A model generated the notes under the pieces. It saw only the letters and a program-made list of their open reading frames with translations, was not told the DNA's origin and ran no database searches. From a virus, in the IMG/VR virus record IMGVR_UViG_3300034082_001517, positions 4,526 to 68,525 of that record: a stretch of 64,000 bases of DNA; one strand, given 5' to 3'. How positions within the stretch are numbered: the stretch's first letter is position 1; every line of letters starts with the position of its first letter. The translations under genes and the position numbers were made by a program. Below are positions 3,579 through 59,222 of this stretch, piece after piece.

Positions 3579-3974
3579 TTAGCGCTCCTTCAATGTCAAT
3601 GAGACATCATAATAAGTACAACCAGTTTTTAAATCTCTTCTAATAACCGATTCGCTATAGGAGTCAACATAGCAGGTGTATTCCGTAAGACCAGCGTTCG
3701 GTTCAAGCTCAACTTGGACAGAAGCCGTTGAAGATGTATTTGCCAAGTTAAACAAAAAAGTCCTGCCAGCTTTACTGTCAACTGATTTATCAACTTTGTC
3801 TGGAAGATACGACCAAGTTATTTGAAATGATCTCTTATTAGTTGTGAAGAATCTTCTTCTATGACCAGATGCAAGATCAACATCATTAGCCGCAATCTCT
3901 TCGGTTATAGACAGCTTTCTTCCATGCTCTGTAATAAATGTTCCATTTATTTTGAATAAAGAATTAGTATTCAT
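3579..3974 (-). CDS. Distal tail (Dit-like) protein
   Basis: 131 aa immediately after tape measure, beta-rich, translationally coupled. Confidence 0.65.
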   Translation of the reverse strand: MNTNSLFKINGTFITEHGRKLSITEEIAANDVDLASGHRRRFFTTNKRSFQITWSYLPDKVDKSVDSKAGRTFLFNLANTSSTASVQVELEPNAGLTEYTCYVDSYSESVIRRDLKTGCTYYDVSLTLKER

Positions 3975-6900: not shown

Positions 6901-9900
6901 ATTTCTCGGTACCACTATCGCTAACAGGCGGGGTAATCTTATTTCTGTCAGCCAGCCCCCTACCTCTTCTGATTTCAAATCTATCATAAGCAGACGGAAC
7001 ATAGGAAGCCTCACCAGGAAGAGCACCGCCAGCTGGCTTCTTTGCCTCATCTCCACCACCACCAGATTGTTGCTCTCTGCTTACTTCAATCAAATTGATA
7101 TCTGAAGCGATTTGCTTTATTTCATCAAACAATCCCGTCATGTATTTCTTAACATCTTCTAGACCAGCAAGCGCAGGTCCAAATATTGAAGCAAAATCAG
7201 CTTCAGAAGTAGCTTCAAATATTTTCTTAAAATCATTCCAAAGAGTACCCTTTAGCCCAACAAGTTCTCGCTTTAGAGAATTAACCATTTCAATTAGAGC
7301 AAGACCAGCAGCTTCAACCCATAAGTTTGCTGGGATAATCCCTGAAATATCTGCAGTCACTGCAGAACTCCAAGGAGTTACGAATTGTGCAATTATTCCA
7401 TCATTGAATGCAGTTTTAAAAGCATCTGGCAATCCAGTAGCCAGCATGTATGCAGCACCAAGTATTGATGTTGAATTAGCTGTTCCGTTCGCTGCACCAA
7501 ACTTAGATTGCGCCTCAGCGACTAACGCATCCATTGATACAGTGAACATACCGATTGATGAGTCAGTGTTATCTCTAATTGCAGTTGGTAACGCCAGCAT
7601 TGAGGTTGAGAATGTACTTGTTATTGCGTCAGAGAATGTTTGAGATGCACCGCCTAATCTTGAAAGCAGAGTTTTAAATTCATCTTCAGTAGAGAAACCG
7701 ACAGTTTTAATCTTTTCAATTTGATCATCAAAATCTCTAAACATTTTTTCATATTCTTTAGCAAGCAGGTCTTTCTCTCTTGCTATTACAGCCAAAGCTT
7801 TATCTCGCTGTTCCCCTTGTAGAGTTTTGAGCCTAGAAAGGTCTAAGTCTTTCTCTTCCTTAACCGACTCGGATTTTGATTTCTGACTTGCTAAATCAAG
7901 TGAACGAACATCTTCGGTTCTACCCTCATAGACGGCAACTTTCCTTTCTCTTAAGTAATTTTCTTGATCAAGAGCTCTTGTCTTGATAAGCAATCTCTTC
8001 TTTTCTTCATATTCAATCTTGTCAGTTAGTCTTTCTTCTGCATCAGCAAGTTCCTGGATAGCATCAGCTTGATTATCAAATGCTTCCAGTGCTTTATCTC
8101 TTTGATCCTCCAATCCCCTCTTAAGGGAATCTACATATTTATCAACCGCTGCGTCAGCTTTGCCAAAGAAGCCATCAGTAAATGTCTTCTTAATATCTTG
8201 CATTTTCTTCATCATTCCCTTAGCAGCAGCAGCGCCAAGAGCTTCACCACCAGATTTTGCAACATCTGCGTTTTTCTTTAAAGATTCCTGTATTGCTGTT
8301 TTCAAACCATCTGGATCACCAGCGGTGCTGGCGAGTGCTTTATTAATTCCTTGACCTATCTTTTTGGCATAAGATTTATCAATTGAATCCATTCCCTTTC
8401 TAATAAAACCAGCCATCCCACTAGCTGCCGAACCCATGCCATTAGCAACTGACTTACCAACACCAGAAGCCCACTTATCAATTTCAGCGTCACTCTTTGT
8501 TAGAGCTTTTGATGCTGCAAAACCAGCAAGTGAAAGACCTACCAAGGCAGCGCCAGCTGTTGCAATTGCCGCACCCATGCCGAAGAATGGGATTAACGCT
8601 ATTCCTATTCCAGTTATGATAGATCCAAAGAACAGACCAACTTCCATCCCAAATTTCCCAATAAGATTAAGCATCTTTATGCTTGCTTTTGCAACCGCTC
8701 CGATTACAGTGCCAATAATTCCACCCATGTGTGGAAGTAATTTAGAAAGACCATCAAACAACTTCGCCATAACATTAAGACCTTCGTAAAGCAAGCTTTG
8801 GAAGAATGCAGACATGTTCTTGCCAGCGCTTCCGTCTTGACGCATTGCTCCACGAATTGCTCTACCGAGCAAGATAAATCTATTGACCAATCTTATAATG
8901 ACTGGACCCAAAGTATTCTTTACAAACCTTTGACCAGCGCCCTGGGCAAAATTATTAAATGCTTGCGATACAGACTTGAATGCCCGTGCCATAATATATA
9001 GGGCTCCAGCGGTTTTCTGTGTTTGGTTTGTAGCACCAGTAAATCCACCAAACGCATTTATGATATCCAGAATTGGATTTGCAAGTGCAAGGATGGCTCC
9101 CTTAACCAATACAATTCCTTCTTTAAACAACTTTAAAGCCGCTGAGTTATTAGTAGTCCCTCTCTTCAATTGAATAAAGATTGCAGTAATAAGCAAAACC
9201 ACTGGGGCTATCAAGAACAGAGCAGCGTTAAGTTTTATCACGATAGCTACAACACTCAATACTGATTTCAAAATCCCGCTAAATGCAGCCTGTATTCCAG
9301 CACTAAGACCTGTAAAGGCATTTAACCCGACCAATGATTTTCGCAAGAGACTTGTTCCAGCAGTAAGACCGCCGATGGCTGCTTTCGCAGATGCCAGTCG
9401 TGCCCCTGTGTTGGCGAATATGTTTAAGTGTGCAATTCCTACCCTTAAAGACTTAACAAATGTCATCATTCCAGCAGTCAACATGAAGGTCCAAGCCTTT
9501 GTTAATTTACTTCTTTGCAAACTAATAAGGAATGCTTTCATTTCTACATTAACAGTTGAACCTAATATCTTACCCAGTTTTCCAAAAGCCCACGCCATAT
9601 CACCTGTGATAGTCTTAGTTACAAGACCAGCGGCACCCATTGATTTAATTGTTGTGATTGTTGCATTGTTTATAGCATTAAATACTCTAACCGCTCCAGC
9701 AGACTTTCTAAAACCATCTGCTAACATGTCAGCCGTTGAGCCTACAACCTTTAATCCACCAGTCATGGCTCTAACAGCATTAACAGCATACGATGAAGCT
9801 ACGGCACGACCAACAGCGTTAAACGACTTTACGGCTGCTGTAGCAGTAACATGCATTGCCTTTGGCAGAACATTACTAAACATACTGCCCAACTTAGCTA

Positions 9901-12900
9901 CACCCTTAGTAACATCATCTATCTTTGATTTAATACCAGAAAAAGCAGTTACTTTTGGTATTGCAGCGGCAGGTGGTGTTGGCAAGGCTGGACCAAATAC
10001 TGGTCTAGTCATTGGGACAGCAGAAGTTGCGCCAACAGTTCTGCGTGGATCTATACCCGTAATTCTTCTAAGCTTTGCCGCCCTTACATCATCAATCGCC
10101 CCGCCATCATCAAGTATTTTCTTACGAACTACTCCAAGTGTTTTTCTTCGTGAAGCCCTCATAACCAATGGATCGGTGTATGGAGCCAAACCACTTCTCG
10201 CTGAAGCGAGCCTTGCTGAATCTCTTGCCTTGTCGGTTATATTTATTTTCAACTTGTCGGCTGAAATTATTTTACCTTGGAATATGTTTGGACCTTGAAA
10301 GAAGTTTGGTCCTTTAAAGAAGTTGGCAAGAGACTTGTCAAAACTAACAGCCAATTCACCAAGCTTTTTAATAACTCCGCTATCTGTAGGAGCAATTTTC
10401 ATTCCAGCAGGAAGACTGCCTACATTAACCTTCCGACTTGCACTAGGTGCTTTTGGTATTGGGGCTCCTGTTGGCGTTGGATAAAACGGTGCCGCTGCTG
10501 CCGCCGCTGCTGGTGCCACTTTTGCTGGTTTTGTTGTTACTGGTATTGATGCTGCCTTTAATGAATCAGTCATAACCGTGCTGGCTTTAGCAAGGTCAGT
10601 CAATCTCTTGGACGCATTTTTAGTTGCAATTTCTAATTTCTTCTTAGCCTCAACAAGAGCACTATTTTGAGCCCCCAGACCATTCTTTATGGTAGCCGCT
10701 TCTCTCTTTAGAAGTTCTGCTTTTGCTTTTTCAAGAGTATTAAGGCTACTACGAACTCCATCTCTAGCCTTTACTAAACTTGTCCCAGATTTTGTCGCTA
10801 ATTGCTCAGCTGTATACGATGAAATTAATGCGTCAATTGCTGCAACATTCTTAAATTTTGCACCAGCCAACAGGGCGTTGGCTTTTTGCATAAGCTCTTC
10901 GCCTCTCTTAGACATTACGATTGTTGCAGCTGATGCATTAGTTGCTGCTGTCTTTACCTCTGTTGCAGTACTGGACGCTGTAGTTACTGTTTTATCTTTC
11001 ACTTCCGCCGTTGTTGCTGCTTGAGTCGCCCCTGTATTTTCTGCCTGTGCTACTGTATTAGCCTCAGTTGCAACAATGTTCTTTGTTACCGCTGGGGTTG
11101 TAGATGGAGGTGTCTCTGGCTTCTCTCCAAGTACTCTGTTTAATATTTCATCGTTTTGGTTACGACTTGCCGTTGCTGCTGCATCCCTAGCTGTCTTCCT
11201 GGTATTTGGCTGCCCAGTCCTTTCTGATTCGCTTGACTTTACAGCCTTTCTAGCATTGTTAAACCTTCTTTGTTGAACTTCTTCTGCAAGCGCTTTTATT
11301 CTTGCTGACACCCCTCCCCCAGTAAGGGATGTCATGGATTTTATTGGTTCCCCCTTTATCTGCCCCTTTACACCAGCTAAGGCGAAAGTTCCTGAACCAA
11401 CAGCGTCAATTAAAATATTGTTAGATGAACTAATCAAATCAGTGGTGTTCTTGAGTATCTTAGCAACACTTCCATTTGTTCCTTTAAACAACATTCCCAG
11501 TTTGGCTTTTGCTGCTGCGACATAACCAGATTTGCCGCCGCTATGAATTTCTGGAGTTTTGGCTATAGTGTGAAGAATATCTTGAACTTGTCTATCCAGA
11601 CCCGCCTTGATGGTTTTTGCTGTTGCCTCATCCACTTGGGTGTTTAATAAATTAAAACCAGATTTAAGAACATTTCCAGTACCCTTAGGAGGTTTTGCAG
11701 CAACTGTTGCTTTAGCAACTTGGCGAATAATATCTTTTTCTACTTTGCTAAATTTTGCAATTGGAAGCTGGTCTACTAAATCATCAATTGATTTATCAAC
11801 CAAGGTTGATATTTTAACCAACCCGCTCTTGACTGCCTGAGCGGCTCCCTTTCCTACTCCAGCCCCTGTTGGTAAATCCCCCATGCCTCCAGAAATTATT
11901 TTTCTGATTGGTTGTACAGTTCTACCGCCAGGACCAGAAGGAGATAGTACTTCTCTTTGTCTTGCAAAAGCTTTTGCAAGTTTCTCTCTAGCCGAAATTT
12001 TTGCAGGCGAAACATCTTTTTTCATATCTGCAAGTTCTGCTACAAGCTCGTCACCGCCATTTTCAATTCCTTTATAAAACTCTGTTAGACCGCCAACAAC
12101 TTTTTTATTTTTTAATATTGCGGCTTCAGCGGCTGGATCAAATTCATCTGATGTTGGGAGATATTTAGTTAAATCAACACCCTTTCTTTCAGCCATCCGT
12201 CTAGCGGTTTCTTTTTTAACTTTTTTTAATTCCGCAGCAGTTGCTTTTCTGTTACCATCGCTTCCCGAAAGGTTTACATCTGCATCAAGAATGTCATCTG
12301 CCGTTTCAGACAAGCGAGATTTCAAATCTCTTATAATATTTTCGTCAGTAGAATCTAATATTTTTTGAGTTAATTTTTCTATTTCAAGATCATGTAATAT
12401 TTTTGCCCTAATGTCTTTGGGAAGAACAACAGGGGAGCCTTTTTGACTTACAACCCTATCCATCCCGCCAACACGATCTGAGAATTCATTTGCATATCTA
12501 ATTGGGTTATCTGGTCCAATGCCAGACCCGCTTGCTGTTCTACCACTAGTTAAGTTCTGAATTGCCATTTCTTCTCGCATCAGATTGCTTTCAGTGGTAA
12601 GTAATTGAGATGTTGCTTTTGATGCAGGAACTAATTTTTCGTGAATTGCGGATTTAGCCAGCAACAGCTCTTCTTGGAGAGCACTTATTTGCTTTTTATA
12701 GGTACCGCCAAGTTGTCTAGCAACATCAGTTCCTTGTTTTTCTACAATCTTCAAGTTAGATTTTGCTTCAGCCAAACTCTTTTCTATTGCTGCAATTTCA
12801 GCTTTAGGTCTTGTCGTGTATACCTCTTCAACGCCAGGAGGAGGAACAATACCTGGAGCGCTATCTGCAATGTTCCCAGATATAGCGTTAGCTAAAGTCT

Positions 12901-15900
12901 GAGCATCTCTAACTTTTCTCGCTGCTTTTGCGGCTTTTGCAGCATCATATTTACTTACCCCAGATACATCAGCTACCCCTTGTAGCATCTGGCTACGAGA
13001 ATTTAACAACGAACTTTTTTGTGTTGCGCCCAATTTCTGACCAGATACAGAAGGAGTTAATCTATCCGTTAATAATTGATCAACTATAGGGAGATATGCA
13101 GGTTTTTTAATGCTTGGTGCGTTCCTTGCTGCATCACCAAATATCTTGTACTTGCCCCTATCAATTCTGCCTAGTGGTGTTGTAGATTTCTTTTCAAACT
13201 CCTTTGTAAGATTTTTAAAGAAGTCTGTTTTAGCTTTCTTGGTAAGTGCAATTTCTCTATCAACAGTTCTGATGAAATCATATTCTTCAGGTAATTGTTG
13301 ACCAGCCGCTGTAAAGAAATCAGTAATTTCCTTATAGGTGAGTATTACCTTAGCTCCTTGACCAGTCGCAACTTTTGCTGTCTTTGTAGCGACTTTAGCA
13401 GCCTTGCCAGCACCCTTCGCCGCATTTTCAACTGCTGCAGTTGCACCCGCAGAAGCTTCTGTTAGAGCGCCAACCGTTCCTTCTACTGCAGCGACTGTAT
13501 TTTTGGCAACAGTTTCTACTGCTTTCTTAACTTCAGCTGCAGCACTCTTAGGTGCTTTAACTTTAACTGTTGGTGTTTTTGGTGTTACTACCTTTGGTGT
13601 TTTTGGTACTACAGGTTCTGGCACCGTTACTACTGGTGTTTCCACAGGTACTACGGGTGGAGCACGAGGTGCCCGTGGTGTTCTAGTGCGAGCGGGTTTT
13701 GGAACTTCAGCAACTGCCTTATTAAATTCTTCAACAGAAGTACCGAGTGCTTCCAATTGAGCTTTAGCTTCAGCCGCAGCTCTTTCTACGGTTGCGACAA
13801 CTGGGGCTCCAATTGTTGCAGCCGAAGGGATAGGCAATCTTCCTGGAAACAAAGAACCTTGTGGATGCATGATGGTAGGTGGAGGAGGAATGTAATTCGG
13901 TACGGTTGGCAAAGGAAACATTCCACGAGGATTCGGTTTGTGTATGTATGATGAAGGCGTAATCGGTGCGCCCGTTGGTGTTGGGTAAAGCGGGGCTGGC
14001 GTAGTAATCGGTGCGCCTGTTGGCGTTGGGTAGAGCGGTGCTGGTGTTCCACCACTTGTTGGTGATTTTGGAGTGCGTGATCCAGGGGTCGTACCAGGAG
14101 TTGTACCAGGGGCTCCACCACCAAATTTATTACCCACAAATGTATTATTTTGAAAGACCGTTCCTTTTAATGTTTTAGCAATTGTTTTAGCAGTTTTATC
14201 TACAGCGTCAGCAGAAGCTTTTGCAATCTTCGCAGGAACATCATTCATATCTGTTACAAGAGATGCTATTAACTCTTGGGTGTTGGGTAAGCCAAGTTTA
14301 TCTGCACCACGCAATGTAGACTTAATAGATGCTAGGCTGTTAGGATCAGGCATCCCTCCTCGCTCTATCAATTCCCGAACTGGCTGATCAACCCCAGACA
14401 AATCAGGAGTCATTTTCCTACGACCTCGGAGTGTCGGACTGTATCCCGCCTTAGTTGGGTCTTGTGACAGCAGGGCTTGATCCCCATATTGGACCATTGA
14501 ATTAAAGCCCTTCGTCATTTTTGGATCAATTATGATATCCGCTATGTCCATTAACTGAGATTTAACACCCTTTAATGATGCAAACAATCCGTTGGTTGAC
14601 ATAAACATCCTGCCAAATCCTTTAATAGCTCCGCCAAATAAAGCTTTAAATGTATTTGATAATAGGCTAACCATTGGAATTATTAATGCAAGCCCCATAA
14701 AAGCACCAATAAACTTCCTAGTTGTTACACTCAGCCCTTTGAAAAAATCTTCTATTTTCTGAACAACAGGAAGGATTGCTTTGACGACCACATCTACTAT
14801 TGGAACAATTGCACGACCAAGACCCATGACTGATTCTCTTAATGTATCAAACCTCGTGGCGGCTGTATCAATTGACAATTGAAGTTCAATCTCCATTTGC
14901 TTACCAGCATATGCAGCTCCACCAACCGCTTCCATAAAGAATCCTTTTCCAGATTCCGTTCCAACTTTAGCGAGAAAGTCTTTAGTATCGCTGAAAAGAC
15001 TACCAAGACTATCCGTAGCTTCTTTTTGAGCATCTTGAATTACTACTGCTCTTTTAGAATAAACACCATTCACTTTCTCTACTGAATCTTTATTTAAATT
15101 TGTTAGATCTAATATTTTCTTTAAACTGACCTCTTCCATTCCATTAGCTTTTAATCTAAAATTAACTTTATCTTCTAATTCTTTAGCTATAGCATTTTCG
15201 GCACTCCCAGTTGTTTCAAGTGCTTTTTGAAATTGAGCAAACTGCCTAATAGAAGTTTCCATTCTTGGACCCTGCCTAACACCAAACAGTCTTGCAAATA
15301 ATTCCAAAGTTCCTTGCTCGCCTTTTATAGAGAGCAATGAATTAAAGCCATCAACTAATTTTTGAATATTTTCCATTCCAACACCCGCAGAGTATTCAAA
15401 CTCTTCACCTAATGCGCTATTTAGTTCTCTAACAATTCCAGTATTTTGTTTTGTCATGGCAACCATTCTTTGCAATGAAACCTTAATGGAGTTTGCAGAA
15501 GCACCAACTTGGAAACCAGCAGCGACCATTGGAGCCAACATGGCTGCCGTGGAGCTCATTGATAGTCCAAAAGAAGTGGCGGCGGCAGACATTTCAGGGA
15601 ACGCATCTGCAATATCTTTCAAGGAAAGCGTTGTTTTATTTTCCATTAAGTTAAATATCGCAAGCTGACCACGAAGCTGCTCAATGGTGTCGCTCATTTG
15701 CTCAACATTTGTTATGTCAAAAACGAATCCTTGTTGCTCCGCCGAGTCTCTTTTAACTCTCAAAATATTTTGATAAATAGATTGAATAAACTGTTGAGAT
15801 TGACCAATATCAAGATTACCAAGTTTTTCCAATTGAACTGTCAACAGTGCTAAATCAGTAATTGCATTTGTTGGAACACCCAATTCAGCAAAGTCACCAG

Positions 15901-16618
15901 CAAGGGCTTGAACTAAAATTCTTGAAGTACCAAATTTTCTAGTAATTTGATCTAGCGCTGGGTTAAGTCCATCAACAGCTTTTCTTGCCGCAATAATCGC
16001 CTCTTCTCCAGTTCCAAATCCGTCAGATATTAATTTTGTTAGACGAACTTGCTCTCTTTCTAATCTTGTATAACTAAAAAATGCAGTTCTGAATATACCA
16101 ATTAATGGCAAGGTAACATTTCTTGCCATCTGCATACCAACTCTTTGACTTTGAATACCAGACTGTTGTAGTCTTTTACCAAAGGACTCAATAGCATTTG
16201 ATTTCATCGTCTTATTTAAAGTACCAACGGATGAATTCATTGAATTGAGATGGCTGGCTGTTTGAGCATACGATGAACTTAACGAGGAAGTCATTTTACC
16301 GCTAGCAGTAACCTTCTTTTGCGCCGCATCTAGGGCAAGAAGTGATGCTGTATTCTGACGCACCATTGAATTAGATAGAGCCAGCTCTTTACGATATATA
16401 GCAATGGATGACCCCAAAACGCCAACACTAGATCTTGTTGCTTTTAAAACCGAATTTAACTGAGTCTGAACATTAGTATTTTGTATTGCACTTTGAGATA
16501 ATTGAAGTAGTTGCTGTGATAGACCGCCAACACCTGCCGCCAATGCAGAAACGGACTCAGCGCCAGTGACGCTTGCATCAATTCCTATTTTTGCCGTGAG
16601 ATCACCAGTGTCTGACAT
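3974..16618 (-). CDS. Tape measure protein (4214 aa)
   Basis: N-terminal TP901-type TMP-like region, hydrophobic segments, C-terminal aromatic-spaced repeats, C-terminal GGM...LHGGEYVIN motif; follows tail chaperones. Confidence 0.93.
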   Translation of the reverse strand: MSDTGDLTAKIGIDASVTGAESVSALAAGVGGLSQQLLQLSQSAIQNTNVQTQLNSVLKATRSSVGVLGSSIAIYRKELALSNSMVRQNTASLLALDAAQKKVTASGKMTSSLSSSYAQTASHLNSMNSSVGTLNKTMKSNAIESFGKRLQQSGIQSQRVGMQMARNVTLPLIGIFRTAFFSYTRLEREQVRLTKLISDGFGTGEEAIIAARKAVDGLNPALDQITRKFGTSRILVQALAGDFAELGVPTNAITDLALLTVQLEKLGNLDIGQSQQFIQSIYQNILRVKRDSAEQQGFVFDITNVEQMSDTIEQLRGQLAIFNLMENKTTLSLKDIADAFPEMSAAATSFGLSMSSTAAMLAPMVAAGFQVGASANSIKVSLQRMVAMTKQNTGIVRELNSALGEEFEYSAGVGMENIQKLVDGFNSLLSIKGEQGTLELFARLFGVRQGPRMETSIRQFAQFQKALETTGSAENAIAKELEDKVNFRLKANGMEEVSLKKILDLTNLNKDSVEKVNGVYSKRAVVIQDAQKEATDSLGSLFSDTKDFLAKVGTESGKGFFMEAVGGAAYAGKQMEIELQLSIDTAATRFDTLRESVMGLGRAIVPIVDVVVKAILPVVQKIEDFFKGLSVTTRKFIGAFMGLALIIPMVSLLSNTFKALFGGAIKGFGRMFMSTNGLFASLKGVKSQLMDIADIIIDPKMTKGFNSMVQYGDQALLSQDPTKAGYSPTLRGRRKMTPDLSGVDQPVRELIERGGMPDPNSLASIKSTLRGADKLGLPNTQELIASLVTDMNDVPAKIAKASADAVDKTAKTIAKTLKGTVFQNNTFVGNKFGGGAPGTTPGTTPGSRTPKSPTSGGTPAPLYPTPTGAPITTPAPLYPTPTGAPITPSSYIHKPNPRGMFPLPTVPNYIPPPPTIMHPQGSLFPGRLPIPSAATIGAPVVATVERAAAEAKAQLEALGTSVEEFNKAVAEVPKPARTRTPRAPRAPPVVPVETPVVTVPEPVVPKTPKVVTPKTPTVKVKAPKSAAAEVKKAVETVAKNTVAAVEGTVGALTEASAGATAAVENAAKGAGKAAKVATKTAKVATGQGAKVILTYKEITDFFTAAGQQLPEEYDFIRTVDREIALTKKAKTDFFKNLTKEFEKKSTTPLGRIDRGKYKIFGDAARNAPSIKKPAYLPIVDQLLTDRLTPSVSGQKLGATQKSSLLNSRSQMLQGVADVSGVSKYDAAKAAKAARKVRDAQTLANAISGNIADSAPGIVPPPGVEEVYTTRPKAEIAAIEKSLAEAKSNLKIVEKQGTDVARQLGGTYKKQISALQEELLLAKSAIHEKLVPASKATSQLLTTESNLMREEMAIQNLTSGRTASGSGIGPDNPIRYANEFSDRVGGMDRVVSQKGSPVVLPKDIRAKILHDLEIEKLTQKILDSTDENIIRDLKSRLSETADDILDADVNLSGSDGNRKATAAELKKVKKETARRMAERKGVDLTKYLPTSDEFDPAAEAAILKNKKVVGGLTEFYKGIENGGDELVAELADMKKDVSPAKISAREKLAKAFARQREVLSPSGPGGRTVQPIRKIISGGMGDLPTGAGVGKGAAQAVKSGLVKISTLVDKSIDDLVDQLPIAKFSKVEKDIIRQVAKATVAAKPPKGTGNVLKSGFNLLNTQVDEATAKTIKAGLDRQVQDILHTIAKTPEIHSGGKSGYVAAAKAKLGMLFKGTNGSVAKILKNTTDLISSSNNILIDAVGSGTFALAGVKGQIKGEPIKSMTSLTGGGVSARIKALAEEVQQRRFNNARKAVKSSESERTGQPNTRKTARDAAATASRNQNDEILNRVLGEKPETPPSTTPAVTKNIVATEANTVAQAENTGATQAATTAEVKDKTVTTASSTATEVKTAATNASAATIVMSKRGEELMQKANALLAGAKFKNVAAIDALISSYTAEQLATKSGTSLVKARDGVRSSLNTLEKAKAELLKREAATIKNGLGAQNSALVEAKKKLEIATKNASKRLTDLAKASTVMTDSLKAASIPVTTKPAKVAPAAAAAAAPFYPTPTGAPIPKAPSASRKVNVGSLPAGMKIAPTDSGVIKKLGELAVSFDKSLANFFKGPNFFQGPNIFQGKIISADKLKINITDKARDSARLASARSGLAPYTDPLVMRASRRKTLGVVRKKILDDGGAIDDVRAAKLRRITGIDPRRTVGATSAVPMTRPVFGPALPTPPAAAIPKVTAFSGIKSKIDDVTKGVAKLGSMFSNVLPKAMHVTATAAVKSFNAVGRAVASSYAVNAVRAMTGGLKVVGSTADMLADGFRKSAGAVRVFNAINNATITTIKSMGAAGLVTKTITGDMAWAFGKLGKILGSTVNVEMKAFLISLQRSKLTKAWTFMLTAGMMTFVKSLRVGIAHLNIFANTGARLASAKAAIGGLTAGTSLLRKSLVGLNAFTGLSAGIQAAFSGILKSVLSVVAIVIKLNAALFLIAPVVLLITAIFIQLKRGTTNNSAALKLFKEGIVLVKGAILALANPILDIINAFGGFTGATNQTQKTAGALYIMARAFKSVSQAFNNFAQGAGQRFVKNTLGPVIIRLVNRFILLGRAIRGAMRQDGSAGKNMSAFFQSLLYEGLNVMAKLFDGLSKLLPHMGGIIGTVIGAVAKASIKMLNLIGKFGMEVGLFFGSIITGIGIALIPFFGMGAAIATAGAALVGLSLAGFAASKALTKSDAEIDKWASGVGKSVANGMGSAASGMAGFIRKGMDSIDKSYAKKIGQGINKALASTAGDPDGLKTAIQESLKKNADVAKSGGEALGAAAAKGMMKKMQDIKKTFTDGFFGKADAAVDKYVDSLKRGLEDQRDKALEAFDNQADAIQELADAEERLTDKIEYEEKKRLLIKTRALDQENYLRERKVAVYEGRTEDVRSLDLASQKSKSESVKEEKDLDLSRLKTLQGEQRDKALAVIAREKDLLAKEYEKMFRDFDDQIEKIKTVGFSTEDEFKTLLSRLGGASQTFSDAITSTFSTSMLALPTAIRDNTDSSIGMFTVSMDALVAEAQSKFGAANGTANSTSILGAAYMLATGLPDAFKTAFNDGIIAQFVTPWSSAVTADISGIIPANLWVEAAGLALIEMVNSLKRELVGLKGTLWNDFKKIFEATSEADFASIFGPALAGLEDVKKYMTGLFDEIKQIASDINLIEVSREQQSGGGGDEAKKPAGGALPGEASYVPSAYDRFEIRRGRGLADRNKITPPVSDSGTEKSGGGFFGGIKDAAIGLADQLGAVKTAILGAVGAIAGFFVLQAVFGFISTVMGVIAGALLTVSIGAAAIVAAVGIVIGLFIYLYIKVKGFRDFVNGAFIAAWEALGTVIGFVWDGIKTGVSNSLDAVKNFVQNALDFMKDVWGAIGGIVEDTFKKIISFFVDGFNALKDNIGGFVDSFINLFKGFWGAIGDGIKTIADPIMELLGKIGIAIGIAIGAIVAFAGGIVVVIVNIFDKIKGPLFSVTGFIIDIFSKIFDIATPIVEIGIGAIAKLIALPFEILNTVIDIAVGAIKIAIDIIVGVFNVLFDVFKAIASNPIVVFFARLAALLGLVAAIAATWTIKIVLESTWYVIKKVVGALIDLAEFIVGGLVGAFNIIKDVAVAAWDFIYDKVKGFVDWWHENIGSLWLIFTAPVVIAYEAIMWLFDTVKNNLGPILSSVWDGFKSAIDVVWEVMKKVSSWIGTAFGAAWGVLKKAASLYWDYLSFVIPLLWDTLKKVASWIGAAFSKVWDVISYVATNAFQILGDAISIFWGIITSGYDFIKPVFDWIADTVGNVIKTYVEILQIAFSLLWNGIMAGYDFIKPVFDWIMDIVGNIISTQVEGLKKIFGFLWDGIKAGWDLVGPIFGLMADIIGKVIKQAIDDVKFVWDLLWQGIQISWTFLEPIFNFIKDAITGGIGLAIDLIKAGWDLFVAALTNTKDFIMGVIGSIGGFIKEKIQVVIENLIGVWNGLKTAFSTVWGVIEPIISKIGGAIKSVIGGAIDFISSAISAIPQAFKIVVNSIGGLFNRAVDLLGNFAFPKTILGIPLPFIGGKKVSDFIPLPKIPTLYSGGKVGMYMKGGMAYGTGGMTNGPVQQGIPAILHGGEYVINHKAVQRIGTDTLERLNNYKLSKPNLPSMPSVPRINMPGAGINAPQYAQSGTASSSTQNVNIFVENFIGEPEWFNGMMKDYNTKVLPRNQKAAGVQSRVVSTYNGINKGL
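13959..14045. repeat. 45-bp tandem repeat (x2) encoding PAPLYPTPTGAPIT in TMP; third diverged copy near 10459-10495
   Basis: gtaatcggtgcgcc starts at 13959 and 14004. Confidence 0.85.
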
Positions 16619-52868: not shown

Positions 52869-53151
52869 ATTCCCCCAAACTTTCTATCTAGTACATTACC
52901 CGCACCGAACCATCCCATCCCAAATTTTAGTACATATTTTATGAGTGTTACTTTACTTTTTTTTGCCATATGAGAATCCTGTGTCGTGTAGGGTCAATAC
53001 ATGACGGTGGTTCAACGATGCGCTTAGCTCAAGTTGAACAACCGATTGTTGGGGTTGGTGATGTATTTATATTGAATACACATTTGCGCTCATCCTGTAA
53101 GGTTATGGATGTCGGCAAGGTGCCCAGCCACAGCGACAGAAAGGGACTGCC

Positions 53152-53400
53152 GTGTCAACGACAGCCTGCAAGTCATTCGCAATCACGGTTGCGAGAGCGT
53201 TAGAGAGTGCCAAGTCCTACGAGACTGGTGAGACAGACAATCTTTACACAAACTTCCGTGTGAGCGAGAACTTTGACATCCTTTCAATCCGTTCCCTTGC
53301 CAATGAGGCACAGGGCTTGTTGGATGAACTGAGCAACCTTGTTGAAGGTTGCAAGGCTCAAGCCTGCACGATTGAACAGATGGCAAAGGACTTGATGTAA
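53152..53400 (+). CDS. Cassette 1 ORF a, hypothetical
   Basis: GTG after GAAAGGGA, 82 aa. Confidence 0.7.
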   Translation: MSTTACKSFAITVARALESAKSYETGETDNLYTNFRVSENFDILSIRSLANEAQGLLDELSNLVEGCKAQACTIEQMAKDLM

Positions 53401-53446
53401 GACCCGTCAGGGCTTTATTCCTACAACACATGAAAGGGGGTGAATA

Positions 53447-53536
53447 ATGGATATCAACATTGACCCGCTTACGGCAATGATGGTCATGGTGATCTGGGGC
53501 GCAGTCACCATGATCAGGGAGTACCTACGCAAGTAA
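53447..53536 (+). CDS. Cassette 1 ORF b, 29-aa membrane peptide
   Basis: AAAGGGGG RBS; MDINIDPLTAMMVMVIWGAVTMIREYLRK. Confidence 0.55.
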   Translation: MDINIDPLTAMMVMVIWGAVTMIREYLRK

Positions 53537-53795
53537 GCAGAGAGGGGAGGGGCTTCGGCTCCTCCCCTTTTTTTATGCCCGAACACCAAAGACCCAGGGC
53601 AGGCAGGACACAGTTGTTGAGTATGCGCTCACTACACGCTCACAATGTTTGGTGGGCGACAGTGCGCCTAGCTCAAGTTGCACTCCAATCATCAGGGTAT
53701 GCGGTCATATTCATATTGAATACACATTCCTTCTCATTATGTAAGGTAATGGATGTCGGTAAGAGTGCCAAGTCACAACGACAAGGAGCAAGGTA

Positions 53796-54089
53796 ATGGA
53801 TGAATACGGATTAGTCCTAATGCTTATGGCATTTGGAATACTGTGTTGTCTGTCGGGGTATGCGTTTGGATACGCCGAGCGAGACAATGCGATTGAATCA
53901 GCCCGTGATCGTGCTTACGATGAATGGCTTGAGACCAAGTACACTCCCTATGAGATTGCTACAGGTGCCGCAGATGATGAGGCATATACAGACTGGAGCG
54001 GTTGGACTGGTCTTGGTTACAAGCGTTCTCGTGAGGAACTGGATCAAATGTGGAAAGACCTTGAGACCTCAACGGAAAGGGGTAAATAA
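53796..54089 (+). CDS. Cassette 2 ORF, N-terminally anchored membrane protein
   Basis: AGGAG RBS, TM segment at N-terminus. Confidence 0.75.
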   Translation: MDEYGLVLMLMAFGILCCLSGYAFGYAERDNAIESARDRAYDEWLETKYTPYEIATGAADDEAYTDWSGWTGLGYKRSREELDQMWKDLETSTERGK

Positions 54090-54376
54090 CGAATAACTAA
54101 ACCCAACCAGCGAGCGTGTGGTGTGTCCCCTCCGACACATCACACGCTCACTTTTTTTTGCCCCGAACACCATGCACACAGCACAGGTAGGTCTCAGAGT
54201 TTAACATACACTCAGCCTACACATGCTGTGCTTGGTGGACTACGGTGCGCTTAGCTCAAGTTGTACTCCAATGATAAGGTGATGCGGGTAGATTTACATT
54301 GAATACATATTCTTACTTACTCTGTAAGGTAGTAGATGTCGGAACAAACCTAACCCCGATAGAGAGGATAACCATT

Positions 54377-54643
54377 ATGGAATTTTCCCTAATACTTGGT
54401 TCCTTCTACGCTTACACTAATGGTCATATGTATGAGATTTACTCTACATACGCTGATGACGGTGTGTGCGTGTATGTAGCGTGGTGCTATACAACAACCT
54501 CAGACCGTGTGGTTGAGGGTACAGTAGAGCGTTACGAGACAGACAGCCTGCGTTCAGCGAAAGCGTGGTGCAGGAAGTACGACAGGAAGCGCCAGGCTCA
54601 CTTGCTGGAGAAACAGCAGGACAGGTATCGTATCTACAACTGA
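54377..54643 (+). CDS. Cassette 3 ORF, hypothetical (88 aa)
   Basis: ATG after GAGAGGA; SLRSAKAWC motif. Confidence 0.7.
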   Translation: MEFSLILGSFYAYTNGHMYEIYSTYADDGVCVYVAWCYTTTSDRVVEGTVERYETDSLRSAKAWCRKYDRKRQAHLLEKQQDRYRIYN

Positions 54644-54906
54644 TACGAACAATCAAACCCTCACCTTCGGGTGGGGGTTTTTTTGTTGCCCGAACACCCA
54701 ACACACAGCACACATAGGTCTCAGAGTTTTAATATGCACTCAACGCACACATGCTGTGGGGTGGTGGGCAACGGTGCGCCTAGCTCAAGTTGCACTCCAG
54801 CGATCAGGGGATGCACACGATTTCATATTGAATACATATTCTCTCACACTCTGTAAGGTATTGAGTGTCGGTAAGAGTGCCAAGTCACAACGACAAGGGG
54901 AATACA

Positions 54907-55203
54907 ATGAAACAGCAAAGCAAGGCGCAAGCACGGGCTAAGCAAAGCCGTGAGCAGGTACAAGCCAACAAGCGTATCAAGGCTGTCAATGCCGATATGC
55001 GCAATGGCGATACCGTAATGACACTGGGCGAGCAATTGGCAATGCTCACCGATAAGTACGAGCAGGCATTGAGCAAGAACGGAAGCAATCACCCATCAAC
55101 ACAAGGGCTCTTGTTCCTTGTTCGTTCCTACTCAAGCACTATCCAGAACCAGACAACGGATAAAGCCAAAGCCGAAGCCAAAGCAAACACAATCGCTCAA
55201 TAG
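54907..55203 (+). CDS. Cassette 4 ORF, basic helical protein (98 aa)
   Basis: ATG after AAGGGG. Confidence 0.7.
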   Translation: MKQQSKAQARAKQSREQVQANKRIKAVNADMRNGDTVMTLGEQLAMLTDKYEQALSKNGSNHPSTQGLLFLVRSYSSTIQNQTTDKAKAEAKANTIAQ

Positions 55204-55480
55204 CGACTATCCACCCCCAATAATACAAATCAACCCCTTGCCTTCGGGCAGGGGGTTTTTTTGTGCCCCGAACACCACCATCTCAGGACGCATAGATCTC
55301 AGGGTTTAATATGCACTCAACGCACACAAGATACGGTGGTGGGCAACGGTGCGCATAGCTCAAGTTGCACTCCAGCGATAAGGATATGATGATGCTTTTA
55401 TATTGAATACATATTCTCACTCACTTGGTAAGGTGTTATCTGTCGGCAAGGTGCCAAGTCACAGCGATAAGGGGTAAGCA

Positions 55481-55714
55481 ATGAGAACAGTAATTAGCAT
55501 TCCCACCGAGCAATGCCCACTCTGTAGCAAGATGGGTGAGATCACTATGGATCTCGGAGTGTGGGAGATCGGCGTAGTCAAGCGTGCGCAAGGGGAATAT
55601 ATCCAAGATGCATTCCCCGCACTCTCGGCAGGGGAGCGTGAACAACTTATGACAGGCATTCATTCAGAGTGCTGGGATAAGGAATTTGCAGGCACCGAAG
55701 AGGAAGGCGAATAA
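55481..55714 (+). CDS. Cassette 5 ORF a, zinc-binding actinophage-type protein
   Basis: CPLC...IQDAFP.LS..EREQLMTGIHSECWD. Confidence 0.75.
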   Translation: MRTVISIPTEQCPLCSKMGEITMDLGVWEIGVVKRAQGEYIQDAFPALSAGEREQLMTGIHSECWDKEFAGTEEEGE

Positions 55715-55959
55715 TGTCGCTTAGCCAAGAGGTGCTGTACGAGATCCTGCACGCCGTAGCCTCGCTACGCATTCCTAAAGTAGACGGGGTAATCCTTGAC
55801 GCTCTCAAGGTGCCTGATGAGATACTGAAGGAAGGCGGTGTAAGGTGCAGGTATTACAAGCGCATGGTGGAGCGTGATATACATAATCACCCCGCCATCA
55901 AGCCAGTATCTGTCCATTGGACAGCGCACGGTGATTGCTTTCTACGGAAAGCAGTTTGA
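55714..55959 (+). CDS. Cassette 5 ORF b, hypothetical
   Basis: TAATG coupling, 81 aa. Confidence 0.7.
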   Translation: MSLSQEVLYEILHAVASLRIPKVDGVILDALKVPDEILKEGGVRCRYYKRMVERDIHNHPAIKPVSVHWTAHGDCFLRKAV

Positions 55960-56219
55960 AAAATTCCCTCCCGAGCCGAAAGGCTTGGGGGGGTTTTTTT
56001 TGCCCGTACTCCGACCAGACAGCACGCAACAGTAAACCATATTGAATACATGCTCACTACACATGCTATGAGGGTGGTGGGCAACGGTGCGCATAGCTCA
56101 AGTTGCACTCCAGCAATAAGGATAATATGATATAAACATATTGAATACATATTCTCGCTCATATTGTAAGGTATTGAGTGTCGGTACAGCGCCAAGTCGC
56201 AACGACAAGGGAGAAGCAA

Positions 56220-56486
56220 ATGCGTAAAGTAAAGGCAGGTTCAGTCAATGTAATCAAGCGTGGTCGTGCTAAGCGTCACGATCAGTATCTAATTGACTGT
56301 GTGAACGCTGTAACCAATGCGACAGATGTAATGGTCACAGAGTGTCGTATCCCTAATACCGTTGTAGATAAAGGGCGTATTCGTGCCCGTATCGCAAGGG
56401 CGCAAGGGTCAACCAAACTAAGTATCCAATTCCACTTGGATAAAGGCAAACTTATCCCCGTGCTAAGCAAGAAGCGCACTAAGTAA
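56220..56486 (+). CDS. Cassette 6 ORF, divergent KRGR-family protein (88 aa)
   Basis: MRKVKAGSVNVIKRGR...; ATG after AAGGGAG. Confidence 0.75.
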   Translation: MRKVKAGSVNVIKRGRAKRHDQYLIDCVNAVTNATDVMVTECRIPNTVVDKGRIRARIARAQGSTKLSIQFHLDKGKLIPVLSKKRTK

Positions 56487-56790
56487 CCAAGTCGCTTCCC
56501 CAAGCAGTCCCCTCAAGCCGAAAGGCTTGGGGGGATTTTTTTTTGCCCGAACACCGACCACACAGCACACAGCGATGCCCAATGTTGAATACACGCTCAC
56601 CATACATGCTATGAGGGTGGTGGGCAACGGTGCGCCTAGCTCAAGTTGCACTCCAGCAGTAAGGGGATGATGACATATTTATATTGAATACATATTCTCT
56701 TTACATATGTAATGTAATGAGTGTTGGTGAGCGCCTAATTGCTCACATTCCGTGAGCGATGGCTAAAAACTCATCGCAAGGGAAAAGCCA

Positions 56791-57099
56791 ATGAGTAAGA
56801 AAATAAATCTAAGCCAAGTCACAAACTTGGTCAAGCGTGGCAGACAAGCCATTATTGACCTCGCTCTAGTTGCCGATATCCAGGCGCTAGACCCAGCGAT
56901 TGAGGGTGACGCATTCATCTACGAGGACGCACAAGGCGACACCAGCGATGAGGATTTTCCAAATTGGAAAAACACTTGGCGAGGTCGTGTCGCAAAAGCA
57001 GGCGAGGCTTGCGACCGTGAATGCTCCATTCTGTGGACTACAGAGGGAGAGATGGTGGTATCACTCAAGCCTGTCAAGGGCAAGCGCAAGCGCAAGTAG
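56791..57099 (+). CDS. Cassette 7 ORF, KRGR-family paralog 1
   Basis: NLVKRGRQA...KNTWRGRVAKA...SLKPVKGKRKRK. Confidence 0.85.
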   Translation: MSKKINLSQVTNLVKRGRQAIIDLALVADIQALDPAIEGDAFIYEDAQGDTSDEDFPNWKNTWRGRVAKAGEACDRECSILWTTEGEMVVSLKPVKGKRKRK

Positions 57100-57419
57100 T
57101 GAGACCATAGTGAGGTAAAGAGTTACCTTGCCAAACTAACCCCATAAGCCTTATGGCTTGTGGGGTTTTTTTGGGTGGTGTTCTCGCTGGCTAGTCGCCC
57201 AGAGAACACCACCTTGCAGAGAGTCCCTATGCTCACAAATTTAATACACATTTCCTATCCCGACACATGGCGGTTGGGCAACGGTGCGATTAGCTCAAGT
57301 TGCACTACCGCCGTAAGGGAAGTATAGGGACTTTATATTGAATACAAATTCTGATGACATAGGTATAGTTATTGATGTCGGTATAAACGCCAAGTCGTAT
57401 CCGATAAAGGATAACTACA

Positions 57420-57722
57420 ATGAAAGTCAATCTAAACGAATTGACCAATTTGGTCAAGCGTGGCAGGCAGGCAATCCTTGATATGAATCTTGTTGCAGAG
57501 ATTCAGACCATTGATCCAGCAATCATTGGTGATGCAATCATCTATGATCTTGCACAAGGTGATCCAAGTGATGAAGACTTTGCCAATCACAAGAACACTT
57601 GGCGTGGGCGTGTTGCCCGCAGTGCCGAGTATCTCGGCGTTGATTGCTCGGTCAATTGGACAACCGAAGGCGAGATGATCGTCTCGCTCAAGCCCGTCAA
57701 GGCTAAGCGCAACCGCAAGTAG
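57420..57722 (+). CDS. Cassette 8 ORF, KRGR-family paralog 2
   Basis: Clearly homologous to 56791-57099. Confidence 0.85.
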   Translation: MKVNLNELTNLVKRGRQAILDMNLVAEIQTIDPAIIGDAIIYDLAQGDPSDEDFANHKNTWRGRVARSAEYLGVDCSVNWTTEGEMIVSLKPVKAKRNRK

Positions 57723-58032
57723 TTAGTGCCCCGCAAGCCCAATGAATACAAGAGCCCCGTGAGCCTTAGTGCTCACGGGGCTTTCTTGGCGGTTGTTCTC
57801 GCTGGCTATACGCCCAGAGAACAACCGCCGCTTAGAGTCACACCTGATCTCATGTTTAGTACACAATTCCCAATCACAATACACGGCTGTGGTTCAACGG
57901 TGCGCCTAGCTCAAGTTGAACAACAGCCAATTGGGAAATAGAGGAGAAATATATTGAATACATATTCTCACTTACTTGTTACTATGTATTTGTGGGTAAC
58001 AATGCCAAGTCATATCCCATAAAGGAAATACA

Positions 58033-58341
58033 ATGACCCTTAAAGTCAATTTGAGCGAAATCACCAATTTGGTGAAGCGTGGCAGGCAGGCTGTCATAGA
58101 TCAGGCGTTACTTGCCGACATTATGTCATTAGACGCTAATGTTGCTGGCGATGCCTTTATTTATGCCGATGCCCAAGGCGACCCAACAGACGATGAATTT
58201 GTTAATCACAAAAATTCATGGCGTGGGCGTGTTGCCAAGGCTGGCGAAGCGTGTGACCGTGACTGCTCCATTTTGTGGACTACAGCAGGCGAAATGGTCG
58301 TATCGCTCAAGCCAGTAAAGGCGAAGCGCAACCGTAAGTAA
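58033..58341 (+). CDS. Cassette 9 ORF, KRGR-family paralog 3
   Basis: Approx. 75% identical to 56791-57099 by manual count (26 differences in 102 aa). Confidence 0.85.
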   Translation: MTLKVNLSEITNLVKRGRQAVIDQALLADIMSLDANVAGDAFIYADAQGDPTDDEFVNHKNSWRGRVAKAGEACDRDCSILWTTAGEMVVSLKPVKAKRNRK

Positions 58342-59222
58342 TTCCCCCGTTAGGTAATAGAGACAAACCCCATATGCCATAAGGCGTATGGGGTTTTTCT
58401 TTACGGGTGTTCTCGCTGGCTATTCGCCCAGAGAACACCCGTTTTGTCTATGCCAATGCGATTAGATATTTAATACAAATTCTCAATCTCTATTCATGTA
58501 AATGGCGGGTGGTCCAAATAGAAATGTATTTGTATTTGTACACCCGCCAAAATTTATATGTTTATATCTGCGTTTTTAATAATGTTACTAATCATACACA
58601 TGTTTATACCTATACAATCAGAAATGTATTTACAATTAACAATGAGGAGGTCGGGGTTATCATAGGGGCTGGGATAGCGGATGCGATTCTCTATATCTGT
58701 CGGGGCAAATTACAACTGTGTAATCAATGCGTATATCAGTATGTATACAGAACCATTTAACCCCCGATAAATCTGTACTAAAATCGCTGGAGATTAGCGG
58801 CTGTAAAAAGACCTATTAAAAGGGGGTTGATTAGTTATATCTATGTATCTATCCTCCTAGTAAGGACTGATATAGGTTATTTCGTATAGCGAATCATAGG
58901 GGGTCTCTAATTATGAGCTTTTTTGCCCCGTTTTGTTCAATTGTTGACCAATTTAGTCGTATATTATTATATTTATGCCTATTTTTATTTATTTATTACC
59001 CTAATTTTAGGCAAAAAAAAGCCCAAGAATAGCTATGTTTAGGGCTATTCCTGGACTCTTATTCTGTGATATATCAGCTAAATATTAATATCGTACACCA
59101 CATATATTGATAATATATGAACGATATTGGAACGCTTTACTTACTAATGCTAATAGTTTTCAGCTATTTCCTTCTAATAATCTTTCAGCTATTTCTCTCT
59201 ATAATTATTTCAATCTATATTT

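Follow-up and report, generated by a model that had tools for sequence, protein, structure and literature searches.

What is the function of a short hairpin that recurs, gene after gene, between a promoter-like unit and the ribosome-binding site of small phage genes? The question is raised by an array of such genes in the window analyzed here, a stretch of 64,000 nucleotides (nt) that forms the last 64 kb of the 68.5-kb viral record IMGVR_UViG_3300034082_001517, whose completeness is estimated at about 51%. The array consists of nine tandem cassettes with the same order of elements: an intrinsic terminator, a first structured element (hairpin A), a promoter box, a TAnnnT hexamer, 5-6 variable bases, the leader hairpin, a purine-rich Shine-Dalgarno (SD) sequence and a small orphan open reading frame (ORF). 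The original prediction, made from the letters of the window, described the leader hairpins as a new cis-regulatory RNA motif with a CCAAGU loop and compensatory stems, serving as a protein-binding operator or as a stabilizer of 5' ends. Our analysis confirms that the leader hairpins are real and extends the observation to the whole clade of related phages, while the interpretation is partly supported. A structured + strand element with compensatory stems and a constrained loop occupies the same place of the predicted 5' leader in 122 distinct leaders. With a probability of roughly 0.55, this element is a 5'-terminal stem-loop that shields the 5' end of the message and insulates the ribosome-binding site, its loop being read by a lineage-specific phage factor.

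The array, its promoter-like units and its leaders are arranged in the window as follows.

52985..58400, + strand: the whole array, nine tandem cassettes.
53071..57985, + strand: nine promoter-like units, each formed by the box ATTGAATACA(Y)ATTCT and a TAnnnT hexamer 27 nt after the box start.
53071, 53715, 54298, 54827, 55402, 56140, 56683, 57337 and 57953, + strand: starts of the promoter boxes.
53110..53138, + strand: cassette 1 leader hairpin, TGTCG..GTG-CCCAGC-CAC..CGACA, with TAAGGT at 53098-53103 and the gene start GTG at 53152.
53754..53783, + strand: cassette 2 leader hairpin, TGTCG-gtaaga-GTG-CCAAGT-CAC-aa-CGACA, with TAAGGT at 53742-53747 and ATG at 53796.
54337..54361, + strand: cassette 3 leader hairpin, arms TGTCGG/CCGATA and the CCTAAC-bearing loop aacaaaCCTAACc.
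54866..54895, + strand: cassette 4 leader hairpin, loop CCAAGT, the same sequence as the cassette 2 hairpin in front of a different gene.
55441..55469, + strand: cassette 5 leader hairpin, TGTCG..GTG-CCAAGT-CAC..CGATA, outer stem with a G.U pair; z-score +0.36, weak alone.
56179..56207, + strand: cassette 6 leader hairpin, GCG-CCAAGT-CGC.
56722..56778, + strand: cassette 7 leader, preceding the first gene of the KRGR proteins described below, three-helix, with single-stranded GCCTAAT; minimum free energy (MFE) -23.8, z-score -2.5.
57376..57406, + strand: cassette 8 leader hairpin, TGTCGG..ACG-CCAAGT-CGT..CCGATA.
57991..58021, + strand: cassette 9 leader hairpin, TGTGGG..ATG-CCAAGT-CAT..CCCATA; z-score -2.1.

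Seven of these hairpins, six with the loop CCAAGT and one with CCCAGC, had been named in the original prediction, and all of them are present with the coordinates, stems and loops given there. Its placement of the element, starting approximately 6 nt after the -10 box and ending immediately before the SD, agrees with our measurements: the hairpins begin 5-6 nt after the TAnnnT hexamer and stop 0-2 nt short of the purine-rich SD. The three-helix leader in cassette 7 is kept in relatives by compensatory changes (compare the variant in locus L141). The hexanucleotide CCAAGT alone is mildly enriched in the window (52 occurrences vs 33.3 expected; the largest number in a shuffled sequence is 50). 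The longer GCCAAGTC occurs eight times vs 1.6 expected, and none of 100 shuffles reaches eight. All eight copies are on the + strand, at 53209-58011, six of them in leaders and two inside ORFs (53209 and 56813). No match to GCCAAGTC is found on the - strand of the window, which covers about half of the genome; therefore no + strand RNA of the window carries the 8-nt complement, and no antisense partner is seen. On the window alone, the case for the hairpins is open.

The second intragenic copy lies in the first KRGR gene, where CCAAGT-cacaa-ACTTGG (56813-56830, + strand) folds into a hairpin of 6 perfect base pairs that covers the codons of a conserved N-terminal motif. The KRGR paralogues have different palindromes at the matching position.

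Relatives were found in two ways. A scan with the promoter box yielded a syntenic array in the viral contig L085, the same phage being assembled again as L131/L132, and an alignment of the three KRGR paralogues, used as the query, retrieved six viral and 31 metagenome loci. Together, the window and 37 related loci supply a set of 122 distinct leaders. A site was included if it had a promoter box with a correctly spaced TAnnnT hexamer, as well as an SD and an ORF with its start codon, so the set is conditioned on promoter context. The leaders are mutually related, since they include paralogues, orthologues and some phages assembled twice. L131 and L132 are parts of one 38.7-kb viral contig, whose two ends join inside one array cassette; the assembly is therefore circularly permuted or collapsed at repeats. 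A motif scan of viral contigs with TGTCGG..GCCAAGTC gave a single chance match only. Among 50,697 records of isolate phages, neither near and distant DNA searches nor the KRGR protein search gave any match.

The leaders fold more stably than their dinucleotide shuffles, with a mean z-score of -2.7 over the 122 leaders; 68% of them are below -2 and 97% below 0. The uninterrupted basal helix, whose 5' arm was sought 3-10 nt past the TAnnnT box, has a mean length of 7.3 bp vs 4.1 bp in mononucleotide shuffles, and reaches at least 6 bp in 75% of the leaders vs 19% of the shuffles. The position of the helix is also conserved: it begins by the eighth nucleotide past the TAnnnT box in 104 of 122 leaders, and nucleotides 7-10 past the box read T-R-T-C (T in 93, purine in 101, T in 103 and C in 80 of 122).

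The compensatory character of the stems was assessed for the three classes below in MAFFT alignments that were not fitted to structure. The window-type set consists of six hairpins from the window and six from loci L140, L143 and L160.

CCTAAC class, 16 sequences: 128/128 cells paired, slid controls at most 53%, 6/8 pairs changed on both sides.
GAAAC..AAGTA class, 21 sequences: 91.7% of cells paired, slid controls at most 47.6%, 4/8 pairs changed on both sides.
Window-type inner 3-bp stem, 12 sequences: 36/36 cells paired, 2/3 pairs changed on both sides (GC 7/AU 5; CG 6/UA 6).

The outer stem of the window-type hairpins is paired in 75% of cells in the MAFFT alignment, because the 3' arm of the TGTCGG/CCGATA type sits one column off; in lists of the arms it is paired throughout. 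Thus, it is the pairing, and not the sequence of the stem, that is conserved.

The two DNA strands are not equivalent in this respect. As had been proposed from the G.U pairs of the window, the hairpins favor the + strand RNA: 152 G.T combinations are observed vs 88 A.C, the mean helix is 5.98 bp long if G.U pairs are allowed vs 4.70 bp if A.C pairs are, and in 76 of 122 leaders the sense strand has a more stable fold than its antisense counterpart (p = 4e-4). This bears on an explanation at the level of DNA, either as a dyad operator for a repressor at +1 to +30 or as an extruded cruciform tuning the promoter. The element does abut the promoter, the T-R-T-C at its base is conserved, and hairpin A is a further structured element beyond the region predicted to be transcribed. 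However, a protein operator has no need for half-sites that vary and compensate each other, as these do, and the excess of G.T over A.C distinguishes the strands. Cruciforms form poorly from 6-16-nt loops on 5-8-bp stems, which are the dimensions observed here. We consider a DNA-level role decidedly improbable.

In contrast to the stems, the loop is constrained in sequence. In the window-type hairpins GCCAAGTC is invariant in 12 of 12 sequences, with the flanking pairs changing; GAAA..AAGTA is (nearly) invariant in 21, and CCT.A is likewise kept beside covarying stems. A loose core CC[ACT]A[AG] is found in 47 of 87 unique loops vs 12.6 in shuffled loops (maximum 23). Across all leaders the loops are 6-16 nt long and fall into several classes: the window type, the 12-nt GAAACnnAAGTA, the 12-14-nt loops (nCCTAAC), CCTAG, the C-rich short loops (xCCC), and the three-helix KRGR leaders. 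The CCAAGU loop, which the original prediction took as the defining feature of the motif, is restricted to the lineage of the window (the window, L140, L143 and L160); in other lineages the same gene families carry GAAACnnAAGTA, nCCTAAC, CCTAG, xCCC or complex leaders.

The loop type follows the phage lineage and not the gene. In particular, genes of family F1 have CCAAGT loops in two leaders and CCTAAC loops in nine, and genes of family F2 have CCAAGT in one, xCCC in five and GAAAC..AAGTA in two. Conversely, unrelated genes of one genome share a loop in 6/9 cassettes of the window, 7/10 of L140 and 8/13 of L159.

The classes could not be united by a sequence model. A covariance model of the GAAAC..AAGTA class (class I, the largest one), run over the window with filters off, has its best match at 54332-54367, in the cassette 3 leader (12 bits, E = 0.96), followed by the hairpin at 57376 (8.9 bits, E = 8); the remaining leaders are absent at E <= 10. 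As these scores are at the noise level, no homology between the loop classes is demonstrable, and the leaders are therefore united by place and architecture rather than by alignable sequence. The claim that the motif is new holds with respect to Rfam 15, as the leader hairpins match none of its families: at gathering thresholds the whole window contains three tRNAs only, and at E <= 1 the region 52900-58500 has 12 sub-threshold matches, 11 on terminators or flanks, one in an ORF and none on leaders. The literature search yielded nothing relevant on leader hairpins of freshwater phage early genes, which is not proof that the motif is unpublished.

The cassettes are gained, lost and swapped as units. 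The closest relative, L140, is 94% identical to the window over 3.9 kb; it has an extra cassette at its positions 4362-4893 that is absent from the window, and its segment 5818-6601 replaces window positions 54346-54648, with the breakpoints in the cassette 3 leader hairpin and at the terminator. In the other arrays the order of gene families agrees, with single-cassette insertions on a conserved backbone. The promoter-leader unit is thus a portable cassette for gain, loss and swap of small genes.

Such mobility could make the hairpin a passive passenger of a repeated recombination cassette, similar to the linkers of promoter-early stem-loop (PeSL) units, its similarity between genes being due to recent gene conversion. 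The identical hairpins of cassettes 2 and 4 in front of unrelated genes fit this explanation, as do the differences of close relatives by whole cassettes with breakpoints at leader and terminator. Conversion, however, would homogenize the stems as well, while the stems observed differ and retain pairing via double changes around a fixed loop; moreover, the hairpin occupies the same place across lineages whose leaders cannot be aligned. We therefore regard a mere linker as improbable.

The conserved placement suggests how a 5'-terminal stem-loop would work. The hairpin would be the first part transcribed in each early-gene cassette, extending from about the predicted start site to the base of the SD. 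In the accessible part of PMC3997798, RppH and RNase E are described as requiring single-stranded 5' ends, B. subtilis RppH requiring at least two unpaired nucleotides, and secondary structure at the 5' end as stabilizing for this reason. A base-paired 5' end would slow down decay that depends on the 5' end, whether by an RppH-type pyrophosphohydrolase, by RNase E or by RNase J. We favor 5' protection because the distance to the TAnnnT box is fixed whatever the size of the hairpin, and because of the single-stranded 5' end that RppH and RNase E need.

The hairpin may also keep the ribosome-binding site accessible. The probability of the SD being unpaired is 0.80 in native leaders vs 0.49 if the upstream part is shuffled, being higher in 102 of 115 cases (p = 1.6e-18). 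The pyrimidine-rich upstream bases would be locked in a helix of their own, leaving the ribosome-binding site single-stranded, and this might insulate it in vivo. For both roles the stem would need pairing only. The constraint on the loop, together with its variation by lineage, argues for a further layer of control, in which a trans factor specific to the lineage, and most likely a protein of the phage, would read the loop and govern the early "host-takeover" messages jointly.

Known 5'-terminal stabilizing stem-loops include those of the ompA and papA 5' untranslated regions in E. coli and of the aprE leader in B. subtilis (PMC3997798, in the part of it available). Like them, the array leaders have a hairpin at or near the (here predicted) 5' end, followed by a strong ribosome-binding site, and pairing matters rather than sequence; by analogy, the expected effect would be protection from RppH, RNase E or RNase J. 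Unlike in those leaders, the start site and the stabilization are here predictions, the loop is constrained and lineage-specific, which a pure stabilizer does not need, and each genome carries the element on 9-13 cassettes.

The constrained loop is compatible with another division of roles, in which translational control is the main function and 5' protection is incidental: a phage RNA-binding protein bound to the loop beside the ribosome-binding site would turn all early cassettes off (or on) together. T4 RegA and the coat proteins of RNA phages are translational switches of this type. The loop sequence is kept while the stems vary, and the loop type tracks the lineage, as would be expected of co-evolution between the loop and a phage factor; in most leaders the SD follows the hairpin within 0-4 nt, and the arrays end with two or three basic KRGR paralogues that bear the most elaborate leaders. 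On the other hand, the SD and the start codon are outside the hairpin and predicted to be open, an operator would not require a constant distance to the TAnnnT box, which is nevertheless kept, and some genomes mix at least three loop types, so that several factors or a tolerant one would be required. Besides, no binding protein has been found, and the cassette proteins match no curated family: of ten compared with Pfam and PHROGs, none scored above the curated cut-off, the one match being to a PHROG of unknown function. We see an operator as the main function as a possibility to be kept in mind, against which we nevertheless lean.

The KRGR proteins are the most conspicuous products of the array. 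They are small and arginine/lysine-rich, and their genes end every array in all relatives (two or three paralogues). The window encodes three of them, 100-102 residues long, with mutual identity of 65-75%.

56791-57099, + strand: first basic KRGR paralogue.
57420-57722, + strand: second basic KRGR paralogue.
58033-58341, + strand: third basic KRGR paralogue.

An 88-residue protein encoded at 56220-56486 is linked to them by BLAST clustering. An AlphaFold2 model of a KRGR protein (predicted local distance difference test, pLDDT, 82.5) had no Foldseek match in PDB at E <= 0.001; the best VIA-align Z-score was 5.4, within the background stated for the tool, and the matches in the ESM Atlas, none above 0.89, were all to unnamed clusters, most of them viral. 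As modeled, the KRGR proteins seem to have no recognizable nucleic-acid-binding fold.

Small basic proteins and promoter-proximal hairpins with lineage-specific loops are also reminiscent of nut- or put-like antitermination, where the nascent hairpin, with or without an N-like basic protein, modifies RNA polymerase so that it reads through terminators; a strong intrinsic terminator does follow every gene here (17 terminator-like sites are found vs 4.8 expected). However, each gene has its own promoter, and there is no downstream need for read-through, as the array ends at 58400 in AT-rich non-coding DNA, followed by converging genes on the opposite strand. Unlike a 5-nt GNRA-like loop, the loops here measure 6-16 nt, and the 8-nt boxA consensus occurs 32 times vs 33 expected, never in a + strand leader. 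Since there is nothing downstream to read into and no boxA-like element, we hold antitermination to be very unlikely indeed; the boxA count, the loop lengths and the lack of genes depending on read-through do not fit a lambda-type nut site, taken with its generally known features.

Hairpin A, the first element of each cassette, requires separate consideration. Its copies in the window, all on the + strand, are the following.

53006-53043, + strand: hairpin A, first copy.
53650-53687, + strand: hairpin A, second copy.
54233-54270, + strand: hairpin A, third copy.
54762-54799, + strand: hairpin A, fourth copy.
55337-55374, + strand: hairpin A, fifth copy.
56075-56112, + strand: hairpin A, sixth copy.
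56618-56655, + strand: hairpin A, seventh copy.
57272-57309, + strand: hairpin A, eighth copy.
57888-57925, + strand: hairpin A, ninth copy.

Its core, TAGCTCAAGTTG, has nine copies vs 0.35 expected, and contains the CAAGT that the original prediction had noticed there. Hairpin A lies 5' of the promoter box, directly behind the previous terminator (in L159, approximately 12 nt past the terminator T run). In 65 copies from eight arrays, 5 of 11 predicted pairs survive double changes (for example, UA 35, GC 21, CG 7), with many G.U pairs. A motif scan of viral contigs with the hairpin A core containing TAGCTC produced only one match, attributable to chance.

A long hairpin also stands behind the terminator of each KRGR gene (57174-57213, 57788-57829 and 58394-58431 in the window, + strand; about 409-446 and 1020-1056 in L131). 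In L131 its loop contains, as judged by eye, the exact reverse complement of 15 nt of the hairpin A core, and the window copies show weaker likeness to hairpin A (GCG.CTAGC). This long hairpin may represent hairpin A copied in inverted orientation, or a partner with which hairpin A pairs.

Several observations weigh against the interpretation of the leader as a 5'-terminal stem-loop with a loop-reading factor. The window hairpins are thermodynamically weak singly (MFE -5 to -9 kcal/mol, z-scores +0.36 to -2.1), and the MFE fold matches the proposed one only partly at 55441, 57376 and 57991. The shuffle statistics overstate independence, because the leaders are related, and the gap between the observed helix and an arm-swap control (5.98 bp vs 4.83 bp) is modest, because leader arms resemble one another. 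The class I model finds no window hairpin above noise, so the leaders do not form a single sequence family. Covariation is equally good in hairpin A and in the leader hairpin, hence on its own it is no proof of a 5'-terminal RNA; as hairpin A precedes the promoter box, either read-through transcripts matter or the promoter model is incomplete. The box and the TAnnnT hexamer, where T, A and T are invariant in 9/9 cassettes, are a putative promoter assigned by the conservation pattern only: a simple sigma-70 scan calls none of the nine units, and the distance from TTGAAT to TAnnnT is 20 nt, vs 16-18 nt. The assembled contigs of two metatranscriptome runs break at repeats and cross promoters and terminators, and, being assembled contigs only, reveal neither a start site nor transcription of the stretch. 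Finally, family and fold searches of the cassette and KRGR proteins gave no candidate for the loop-reading factor.

The promoter box has features of its own. It contains a dyad (GAATA-CA-TATTC in the window, 53071-57970, + strand; GAAT-ACAC-ATTC in relatives) that is conserved far beyond the needs of a -35 element and may in addition bind a regulator. A second, degenerate box (ATTGAATACA with 0-1 mismatch) is present on the + strand at 56041, 56584, 57239, 57741 and 58468, about 100 nt 5' of the main box in several cassettes, with one copy past the last cassette. It may be a decayed promoter, because no consistent TAnnnT follows it.

The genes encoded in the window include those for a tape measure protein, a portal, a head protease and a ribonucleotide reductase. 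The tape measure protein (window 3974-16618, - strand) has 4214 residues, which implies an exceptionally long tail for a siphovirus. The closest relatives of the portal, at 44% identity, belong to Streptomyces phages of 126-134 kb, and the host would thus presumably be actinobacterial. Cluster BE1 of Streptomyces phages comprises siphoviruses that exceed 130 kb and have numerous tRNAs and terminal repeats of 11 kb, in the available part of the description (PMC5764925); the portal relatives and this cluster may be the same group. Overall, the phage appears to be an uncultured, freshwater, actinophage-like one from a clade of approximately 135 kb, with a portal distantly similar to those of Streptomyces BE-cluster phages. 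In a distant cultured relative, the Streptomyces phage LukeCage, the left terminal region (L170 800-11500, - strand genes) is a row of small genes whose spacers of about 110 bp contain repeats of promoter-like motifs and of GC-rich terminator motifs; as judged by eye, the leaders there are short and have no hairpin.

The G+C content is 46-49% in the array, 35-45% in the virion-gene part of the window and 33-36% past the array. The array is separated from the converging genes by some 750 nt of AT-rich sequence (58440-59200) with no convincing ORF; this sequence is kept in outline in L085/L131 and could serve as an origin or a packaging site, or mark a repeat boundary.

Repeated units of comparable composition are known from other phages. 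The PeSL cassettes of T4-type phages are repeated promoter/stem-loop/terminator units (PMC2839356; PMC4122927, in the sections available). As here, composite units flank small orphan genes, and single genes are gained, lost and swapped; the PeSL stem-loop, however, is described as a terminator or attenuator for upstream transcription, located at or before the promoter (PMC2839356, in the same limited part). Unlike in PeSL, the array has a separate canonical terminator, and its leader hairpin, which has no T run, is located past the -10 box and reaches up to the SD; the host type is different, the promoter does not follow the sigma-70 consensus, and the phage is a siphovirus.

In Cluster K mycobacteriophages, SAS/ESAS repeats are found shortly upstream of start codons in a subset of non-structural genes (PMC3203893, as far as the accessible text goes). 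The likeness lies in actinophage-type genomes and in repeats, including inverted repeats with a variable spacer, that have a consensus for each sub-lineage; in the accessible text, the function of SAS/ESAS is given as unknown. In ESAS the 17-bp arms are conserved and the spacer varies, again according to that text, whereas in the leader hairpins it is the loop that is conserved and the arms that vary, with compensation. The 13-bp SAS has no counterpart in the array, where only the SD purines recur between hairpin and start codon, and, unlike SAS/ESAS, the element is tied to a promoter box. The host-takeover module of the Bacillus phage SPO1 (PMC6873191) is similar in having many small early genes, mostly of unknown function, next to the genome end, as the available part of its description has it; the likeness concerns the gene array only, and no shared leader hairpin is described in that part.

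A broader, tentative proposal, to which we would give a limited chance, is that the loops constitute an "address code" of the lineages. Each lineage would have its own RNA-binding regulator, for CCAAGU here and for GAAACnnAAGUA or CCUAAC elsewhere, that stabilizes and then shuts off the host-takeover regulon post-transcriptionally, and this RNA circuit would also include hairpin A together with its inverted copies behind the KRGR genes. In lambda N/boxB and in the coat protein/operator pairs of RNA phages, the loop gives specificity and the stem only pairs, and related phages differ in both the loop and its binding partner. Unlike in these systems, the loops here are longer, no boxA is present, and the start codon is outside the hairpin. 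If the address code is true, an uncultured actinophage-like clade would have a regulon of one factor and many leaders, which co-evolves like N/boxB but acts on message stability or translation.

With this array, the promoter/hairpin cassette arrays in which phages shuffle small genes gain an actinophage-like representative. If the leader is indeed a 5'-terminal stem-loop whose loop is read by a lineage-specific factor, an uncultured freshwater phage clade would control its early genes via a compact, portable promoter-leader unit with rules readable from sequence: the stem only pairs, the loop carries the lineage identity, and the distance to the promoter is fixed. The leaders would then form a clean, testable RNA motif family missing from Rfam and provide a handle for finding the loop-reading factor. 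Moreover, they would be a source of natural 5' stabilizer and insulator parts for high-GC Gram-positive hosts.

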